In this document: positions 400 to 2,523 of the stretch, piece after piece
Numbering within the stretch: position 1 is the stretch's first letter
Layout of the letters: each line of letters begins with the position of its first letter
NCBI RefSeq assembly: GCF_041886205.1
Contig: NZ_CP169029.1
DNA from: Escherichia coli
Lineage (GTDB): Bacteria > Pseudomonadota > Gammaproteobacteria > Enterobacterales > Enterobacteriaceae
DNA: 64,000 nucleotides
Reading direction: 5' to 3' (one strand)
The notes under the pieces: generated by a model
Databases searched by the model: none
What the model saw: only the letters and a program-made list of their open reading frames with translations
What the model was told of the DNA's origin: nothing
Program-made: the position numbers and the translations under genes

Positions 400-891
400 T
401 TAATCGCGGAAGTTTTTGAACTGGAACGGCTGGCCGAGATCGCCACCACGTACCATCGCCATGACAGCCTGCAAATCATCACGAGATTTGCCAGTCACAC
501 GGATCTCATCGCCCTGAATTTGCGCCTGCACTTTCAGTTTGCTGTCTTTAATCATCTTGACGATTTTCTTCTGGGTCGCGCTCTCAATGCCCTGTTTCAG
601 TTTCGCTTCCACAAACCAGGTTTTACCGCTATGAACGATATTCTCCGGTACATCCAGTGAACTGCCTTCAATGCCGCGCTTCAGCAGCTTGGCACGCAGA
701 ATATCCAGCAACTGATTGACCTGGAAATCGGACTCGCTCAACACTTTGATGGTTTTGCTGGCGTCGTTCAGCTCAAATGAGGCTTCAACATTACGGAAGT
801 CAAAACGGGACTCCACTTCGCGGCTCGCGTTATCGACCGCGTTACGTGCTTCCTGAAGATCAACTTCAGAGACAATATCGAAAGATGGCAT
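400..891 (-). CDS. yajQ: YajQ, nucleotide-binding protein (163 aa)
   Basis: Translation from the internal ATG at 891 begins [19 protein letters not shown]; the longer ORF to 1059 has an implausible N-terminal extension. Confidence 0.92.
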
Positions 892-1058
892 CTTTTCCTC
901 TCCCTTCATTTTTGATGCGAAGCATAATACCTGCAAAGTTAAATAACCAACAGTCCTGCACCAGGACGTATCCCTTAATTGTGCATAGTCGCAACAGCAT
1001 GCACAATTAAGGGATAGCCTTATTGAACACCCGGAGTGGTTGCGGGTGAGGAGGAACA

Positions 1059-2523
<1,465 letters not shown>

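Follow-up and report, generated by a model that had tools for sequence, protein, structure and literature searches.

Cleavage by RNase III destabilises the rnc and pnp messages. The 5' leaders of rnc, pnp and adhE, together with those of ahpC, pflB and yajQ described by Gordon, Cameron and Pfleger (mBio 2017; PMC5371410), share a stem of at least 20 bp that is cut by RNase III. One of the sites in that study, designated 'Intergenic (panE-yajQ)', was placed at MG1655 position 444573, where 96 reads were found in an rnc mutant versus 2 and 3 in the wild type (PMC5371410). This site was cut in vitro by purified RNase III, with T7 templates made for both senses, 5' RACE revealed several cleavage sites 'near panE', and both senses could, according to its authors, fold similar hairpins (PMC5371410). 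The half-life of yajQ mRNA was ~6 min in the wild type versus ~3 min in the rnc mutant, and a change in half-life was seen for yajQ only (PMC5371410). Double-stranded RNA is also formed at loci where divergent transcripts overlap in their 5' untranslated regions (Lybecker 2014; Conway 2014; Huang 2020, PMC7373196), and Table S1 of Huang 2020 links the locus studied here to the Lybecker data, the Conway data and its own p19 data. At the DNA level, Warman, Grainger and colleagues (2021; PMC12825309) described bidirectional promoters in which one -10 element is shared and the two starts lie 18 (or 10 or 23) bp apart.

The window analysed here is a 64-kb stretch of DNA from an Escherichia coli strain other than K-12, and positions refer to it unless another record is named. 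Alignment of NC_000913.3 444300-444900 to the window gave the conversion window = 445574 - MG1655 coordinate, and for U00096.2 the conversion is window = 444798 - coordinate; the hairpin sequence is identical in K-12. The features concerned are the following:

400-891, minus strand: yajQ coding sequence, 163 aa plus stop (stop codon 400-402, coding 403-891)
892-1058: yajQ-panE spacer, 167 bp
916-929, minus strand: proximal yajQ promoter P1, -10 TATTAT at 929-924, start at 916, leader without the hairpin
953-967: small perfect hairpin GTCCTG-CAC-CAGGAC at the position of the ancestral panE -10, holding the NtrC-like half-site TGCACCA
969-986: left arm of the palindrome, TATCCCTTAATTGTGCAT
987-998: loop of the palindrome, AGTCGCAACAGC, 12 nt, forming most of the 17-bp spacer in both putative promoters
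999-1016: right arm of the palindrome, ATGCACAATTAAGGGATA, including the published RNase III site at 1001 (MG1655 444573)
971-1006, minus strand: putative yajQ promoter P2, -35 TTGTGC at 1006-1001, 17-nt spacer, -10 CACAAT at 983-978, start at A971
979-1015, plus strand: putative panE core promoter, -35 TTGTGC at 979-984, 17-nt spacer, -10 CACAAT at 1002-1007, start at A1014/T1015
1015-1160: overlap of the P3 yajQ leader and panE mRNA according to data quoted in Table S1 of Huang 2020, an intermolecular double-stranded RNA that is cut by RNase III and abuts the hairpin
1028-1048, plus strand: panE leader stem CACCYG / CRGGTG, 6 bp with a 9-nt loop, just 5' of the Shine-Dalgarno sequence
1059-1970, plus strand: panE coding sequence, 303 aa plus stop
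1158-1170, minus strand: distal yajQ promoter P3, inside panE codons 36-38, -10 TACAAT at 1170-1165, start at G1158

A first-pass annotation of this DNA had described a perfect inverted repeat of 17-nt arms with 12-nt spacing between the divergent yajQ and panE genes and had judged it too long to be due to chance. A repeat search of the 64-kb window confirmed the repeat and lengthened it by one pair, with 18-nt arms that are 100% complementary and a 12-nt loop, and its divergent placement was also borne out, with 42 bp from the end of the right arm to the panE ATG and 77 bp from the start of the left arm to the yajQ ATG. The palindrome is the longest perfect inverted repeat of the window, the longest in each of 20 shuffled windows being 9-11 nt, and analytically 1.7e-5 perfect repeats of at least 18 nt with a loop of 3-20 nt would be expected in a window and 4e-8 in a spacer. 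Allowing up to 3 mismatches, the arm sequence is found at two places only in the window (0.04 expected). As RNA, the palindrome is predicted to fold with -30.2 and -31.3 kcal/mol on the two strands (z = -7.4 and -6.8) into a stem of 18 perfect pairs, extended by 2 pairs in the loop and 3-4 basal pairs, which reaches the length of double-stranded RNA cut by RNase III (about two helical turns, at least 20 bp). ATG CAC AAT TAA can also be read in each arm, which gives both strands a mini-ORF of three codons (999-1010, and 986-975 on the minus strand); no Shine-Dalgarno sequence was evident for these mini-ORFs, which are probably a coincidence of the palindrome.

Searches with the palindrome returned no phage matches, and the plasmid matches were Mb-sized E. 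coli chromosome records that had been mislabelled. An Rfam scan of 700-1300 returned no family, with a chance snoRNA match (E = 3.6) outside the hairpin. The classes of REP/BIME, MITE, IS end and mobile element were rejected, given that each of 5424 E. coli genomes has the sequence at one place and the window has only the two arms. The sole other long inverted repeat of the window, at 22694-22741, has 20-nt arms of 85% complementarity and an 8-nt loop; it is situated in a 109-bp gap between the minus-strand ORFs 21118-22665 and 22775-24592, has a T-run at the loop region and may be an intergenic terminator or a processing hairpin. The convergent yajR-yajQ spacer (~283-385) holds what we take to be REP/BIME-like repeats, GCCTGCTGCGCTACGCTTACCAGGCCTAC ... 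GTAGGCCGAATCAGGCG. The start of the yajL frame (GTG 1927 or ATG 1933) precedes the end of panE (1970), and this overlap of ~40 nt is consistent with a panE-yajL operon.

The published cleavage position, MG1655 444573, corresponds to position 1001 of the window, the third base of the right arm and inside the stem. The first-pass annotation had been aware of no assigned function, a statement that does not hold, as the RNase III site had already been reported (Gordon 2017; PMC5371410). The palindrome is thus already known, as an RNase III site, and what is added here is the reading of promoters within its arms and its evolutionary history. Because the RNA-seq behind the 444573 site was unstranded and the in vitro T7 RNAs had artificial 5' ends, at 846 for the panE sense and 1196 for the yajQ sense (PMC5371410), transcription start data were used to deduce which strand is cut in vivo. 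The first-pass annotation had also proposed mapping of the panE and yajQ starts; public data supply the yajQ starts at 916, 971 and 1158 from the primary table, and the panE start at ~1015 from a second-hand one. The primary 5' ends on the yajQ strand (plus strand of U00096.2), detected by Cappable-seq (Ettwiller 2016; PMC4782308), are:

U00096.2 443640, window 1158: yajQ-strand 5' end, score 35.9
U00096.2 443827, window 971: yajQ-strand 5' end, score 43.2
U00096.2 443882, window 916: yajQ-strand 5' end, score 63.7
U00096.2 443902, window 896: yajQ-strand 5' end, score 2.3

Among P1, P2 and P3, the strongest start is that of P1, and the proximal yajQ -10 region, GGTATTATGC, is invariant across the Enterobacteriaceae aligned. 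On the yajQ strand, the primary 5' end at 1158, which has TACAAT 7 nt before it, is that of a native transcript with both arms. This transcript, from P3, is the only mapped one that carries the whole hairpin; its leader is 267 nt long, and, at 35.9 out of a summed score of 142.7, it provides only about one in four primary 5' ends in the yajQ sense. The magnitude of its effect on YajQ is uncertain.

Table S1 of Huang 2020 (PMC7373196) quotes from Conway 2014 a plus-strand unit that extends from a promoter at 443641 to a terminator at 444835, beyond yajQ, and a divergent panE operon whose 5' end is at 443783 (U00096.2; window 1015), giving an overlap of 142 nt. The same table quotes from Lybecker 2014 the double-stranded RNA MS-115, classed as 'Divergent', with a seed at 443638-443780 (window 1018-1160) and an extended range that reaches 443836 (window 962). 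RNase III products captured with p19 form a cluster at 443437-443776 (window 1022-1361), and 21-22-nt duplexes at 443738-443777 cover the panE ribosome-binding site (PMC7373196). As far as the quoted entries go, the three data sets (Conway, Lybecker and p19) place the panE 5' end at ~1015-1022, where the right arm has its outer border. The supplements of SMRT-Cappable-seq make no mention of yajQ and panE. According to the same entries, the locus is like other divergent loci with overlapping 5' untranslated regions in that the yajQ leader from inside panE pairs with panE mRNA. Unlike at those loci, the intermolecular duplex ends exactly at an intramolecular hairpin, which provides a cut site for RNase III that is independent of the partner RNA.

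With the RNase III leader stem-loops, the palindrome shares rnc-dependent coverage and an effect on mRNA half-life, and it is itself on the published list. It differs from the rnc and pnp leaders in that cleavage at yajQ stabilises the downstream message. It is also unlike the other RNase III leaders in that the hairpin is present only in a minority distal transcript and in that its DNA appears to hold two core promoters.

Both strands of the palindrome read TTGTGC-N17-CACAAT-N6-A in a scripted geometry check. The hexamers are weak matches to sigma70 (TTGTGC 3/6; CACAAT 4/6, with -11A and -7T), and in a consensus promoter scan of 700-1300 no promoter passed, the palindrome hexamers being below threshold. 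From the symmetry, starts near 971/970 on the minus strand and 1014 on the plus strand were predicted before the Cappable-seq table was seen. The Cappable-seq start at 971 matches this prediction exactly and is the 7th nucleotide after the P2 -10, and the panE start at 1015, from the second-hand Conway entry, is the mirror of 971 within 1 nt. The palindrome edges coincide with mapped transcription starts, which had not been noticed in the earlier annotation. From these public 5'-end data we infer that the arms form the panE promoter and yajQ P2, with the -10 of either arm promoter overlapping the -35 of the opposite one and the starts 43-44 bp apart. Since the mapped 5' ends are at the outer edges of the palindrome, the main panE and yajQ mRNAs would be without the hairpin. 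The flanking genes are expressed, yet wild-type coverage at 1001 is near zero, as would follow from main mRNAs that begin at the palindrome edges and are transcribed away from it, leaving only read-through from 1158 to cross the position.

As in the bidirectional promoters mentioned above, symmetry allows divergent starts of RNA polymerase from one short segment. Membership in that class was considered and rejected, as there is no shared -10 and the starts are separated not by 18, 10 or 23 bp but by ~43 bp, the overlap of each -10 being with the -35 of the other promoter and not with its -10. The layout is of the older type of 'overlapping divergent promoters', a term reportedly due to Beck and Warren in 1988. 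Two rare E. coli variants are located here: C1004T changes CACAAT to CATAAT, a better putative panE -10, and leaves a G.U pair in the panE-sense RNA, while G1012A is in the discriminator/outer stem.

The spacer is single-copy in 5424 of the 5426 complete E. coli genomes. Its core (955-1030) is 100% identical in 5209 of the 5424 and has one mismatch in ~4% of the complete genomes (215/5424), while only 3195 E. coli genomes have 99% identity or more over the full spacer. The hairpin of E. albertii is identical to that of E. coli (0/48 differences in 969-1016). No difference between the two species is found in 968-1058, and all of the 5 differences in the 167-bp spacer are within 938-967; the 4-fold sites of panE and yajQ differ at 32% (64/197). 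The identity includes the loop and the outer stem (972-977 / 1008-1013), which are outside the hexamers, and the conserved loop is explained by neither pairing nor a role as promoter spacer. There is no covariation signal within Escherichia because the sequence is completely identical. In E. coli 13TMH22 (NZ_CP019256.1), a clinical urine isolate, IS1203 of the IS3 family is inserted in the right arm, at the equivalent of window 1005-1007, with a 3-bp CAA duplication, and panE is cut off from its putative promoter. The palindrome is dispensable insofar as this one clinical strain has IS1203 within the right arm.

The first-pass annotation had also suggested a conservation check across Enterobacteriaceae. 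The palindrome proved to be conserved in perfect form in E. coli and E. albertii, the two Escherichia species compared, and as an imperfect homologue in the Citrobacter freundii complex, and to be missing from Salmonella, Enterobacter and most others:

Salmonella, Enterobacter, Leclercia, Kosakonia, Pseudescherichia and others: spacer of ~125 bp, no inverted repeat
C. amalonaticus and C. farmeri: spacer of 113 bp, no inverted repeat
C. freundii complex (werkmanii, youngae, braakii, FP75): spacer of 174 bp, homologous and imperfect inverted repeat

The palindrome is part of an extra segment, ~61 bp in the alignment, that is found only in Escherichia and the C. freundii complex. This segment is directly downstream of a panE-oriented ancestral -10, GCGCTATACT (TATAAT in Salmonella), which is kept in every genus except Escherichia, where the site is TCCTGCACCA (TGCACC). 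In a first MAFFT alignment, CATAGT (984-989) appeared to be the counterpart of the ancestral -10; it was rejected when a larger alignment put the ancestral -10 at 955-964. At that position, the 953-967 hairpin is specific to E. coli and E. albertii; it adjoins an NtrC gSELEX peak (~952), is followed by a U-rich tail on the yajQ strand and corresponds to +5 to +19 of the P2 transcript.

The Citrobacter version of the ancestral -10 is TATACT and is situated 6-7 nt upstream of the stem. The Citrobacter stem would start at ~+1 of the panE mRNA, because the segment is directly downstream of the ancestral -10. Predicted folding energies are -17.7 to -22.9 kcal/mol for the panE sense of this stem and -6.9 to -15.1 kcal/mol for its yajQ sense, with 87.3% versus 74.6% paired cells and 17 versus 1 G.U cells. 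The differences in the arms are transitions, which appear as G.U when read as panE-sense RNA and as C.A when read as yajQ-sense RNA, and one double compensatory pair, A-U versus G-C, distinguishes Escherichia from Citrobacter. With about 5 events versus 1 (binomial ~0.11), the pairing bias may be a signature of selection on panE-sense RNA rather than of DNA symmetry. The ompA leader is said to carry a 5'-terminal stabilising stem-loop, reportedly described by Emory, Bouvet and Belasco in 1992. Judged by the alignment, the stem of the C. freundii complex would resemble stem-loops of the ompA type in beginning at ~+1 of panE mRNA and being kept in the panE sense. E. coli is unlike them, since its panE start, in the entries quoted from earlier data sets, is mapped on the far side of the stem.

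E. coli and E. albertii alone have the P3 -10 TACAAT, which requires TGT as the codon for Cys37. In the other genera sampled, this codon is TGC, which yields TGCAAT or TGCAGT without the -11A. A synonymous TGC-to-TGT change appears to have created the P3 promoter inside the panE coding sequence. Taking these comparisons together, we infer that the element may have begun as a panE leader stem-loop and been re-used in Escherichia after promoter turnover. The separate panE leader stem at 1028-1048 is kept in most Enterobacteriaceae sampled. Its fifth pair is U-A in 19 sequences, U.G in 4 and C-G in 3, which looks like covariation via a wobble intermediate, and the stem may control translation or stability.

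Several other explanations were weighed against these data. A known mutational bias of E. coli corrects quasipalindromes through template switching during replication, and an inverted duplication or quasipalindrome perfected in this way could be functionless as a structure, kept as promoter halves and cut by RNase III only incidentally. Such a bias would account for an orthologue that is imperfect in Citrobacter and perfect in Escherichia, and the tolerated IS1203 insertion and the status of P3 as a minority start fit the same explanation, which we nevertheless regard as unlikely in view of the absence of any difference in 48 positions against 32% neutral divergence, loop and outer stem (972-977 / 1008-1013) included, the measured effect on yajQ half-life (PMC5371410) and the one double compensatory pair. 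It is also conceivable that the hairpin acts mainly in an E. coli panE mRNA starting just upstream of 969, as a protective stem-loop or an entry site for RNase III. The position of the Citrobacter -10 and the better folding in the panE sense point that way, as do the in vitro cutting of panE-sense RNA at several sites 'near panE' (PMC5371410) and the extended range of the Lybecker double-stranded RNA, quoted as reaching window 962. We consider this quite unlikely for E. coli, where the ancestral -10 is destroyed (TGCACC), as it is in E. albertii, the panE 5' end is given as 1015-1022 in the three data sets as quoted, wild-type coverage at 1001 is just 2-3 reads and the half-life changed for yajQ only (PMC5371410).

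The first-pass annotation had left the choice between an operator and a hairpin; the hairpin stood, given the published RNase III site at window 1001, and the operator did not. A dimeric or tetrameric transcription factor, NtrC or another, would bind the palindrome and control panE, yajQ or both; any binder would repress both, as the palindrome overlaps both putative core promoters. Like NtrC-type operators, the palindrome is a perfect dyad in a (divergent) promoter region with a gSELEX peak nearby, an in vitro NtrC peak of 41% intensity at 443846 (U00096.2; window 952) beside TGCACCA at 957-963, and a binder might also explain the loop that is invariant between E. coli and E. albertii. The peak is ~20 bp outside the palindrome and unvalidated for this locus, and neither the NtrC dyad TGCACC-N5-GGTGCA (up to 3 mismatches) nor a sigma54 -24/-12 promoter (up to 2 mismatches) was found in 892-1058. 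The 18-bp arms, 30 bp apart from centre to centre, are unlike known operators and far longer than usual half-sites, the Citrobacter transitions keep RNA pairing in one sense and break the DNA symmetry, and the element is missing in Salmonella, Enterobacter and the majority of the other Enterobacteriaceae with panE and yajQ, all of which makes an operator improbable. A role as a terminator or attenuator against read-through from one divergent gene into the other is highly improbable: the stem is very stable on both strands and is followed on the yajQ strand by a small G+C-rich stem with a U-rich tail, terminator-like at 967-953, but neither strand has a U-tract after the 18-bp stem, terminator-like matches are at chance level (1 found, 0.8 expected) and the plus-strand unit from 443641 in the Conway entry, as quoted, runs to 444835, past yajQ.

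That the stem is an RNase III substrate crossed by a native yajQ-sense transcript is largely established, having been shown by others and mapped here. Beyond this, we favour, with a probability of roughly 0.6, a dual use of the palindrome, as an RNase III hairpin in the P3 yajQ leader and as promoters in its arms, with a history of promoter turnover. We propose that transcription from P3 inside panE (start at 1158) would yield a long leader that is antisense to the panE ribosome-binding region and then passes through the palindrome. This leader RNA would fold into the perfect 18-bp stem, about 20-24 bp with flanking pairs, to be cut by RNase III at 1001. The cut would split the yajQ message from the antisense leader and leave a processed yajQ mRNA that is more stable, and it may act where the duplex with panE mRNA borders the body of the yajQ message. 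As DNA, each arm would serve as the -35 (TTGTGC) in one direction and the -10 (CACAAT) in the other, with RNA polymerase starting at the mirror outer edges, at 971 toward yajQ and at ~1014/1015 toward panE, and the bulk of panE and yajQ mRNAs would start outside the hairpin and lack its sequence.

As to its history, the repeat would have come in with the ~61-bp segment, next to the ancestral panE -10 on its downstream side. In the C. freundii complex the stem would still be at ~+1 of the panE mRNA, folding well only in the panE sense, whereas in Escherichia the ancestral -10 would have been lost, the arms made perfect and P3 created by the TGC-to-TGT change in panE. The full formulation, in which the 48-bp palindrome acts at two levels, as mirror sigma70 promoters in DNA and as an RNase III gate that frees yajQ mRNA from its panE-antisense leader, and evolved from a panE stem-loop, is offered tentatively, as somewhat short of an even chance.

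Because yajQ and panE are non-essential, the practical impact is small. For this little-described locus, the mapping adds a concrete architecture that can be tested: P1, P2 and P3 for yajQ, a single promoter for panE, a leader antisense to panE, and a hairpin situated exactly at the duplex end. If the dual-use reading is true, the locus would offer a compact case of selection acting on a single sequence in two capacities, as promoter DNA and as structured RNA, and it would also illustrate how promoters turn over around an insertion confined to one lineage.
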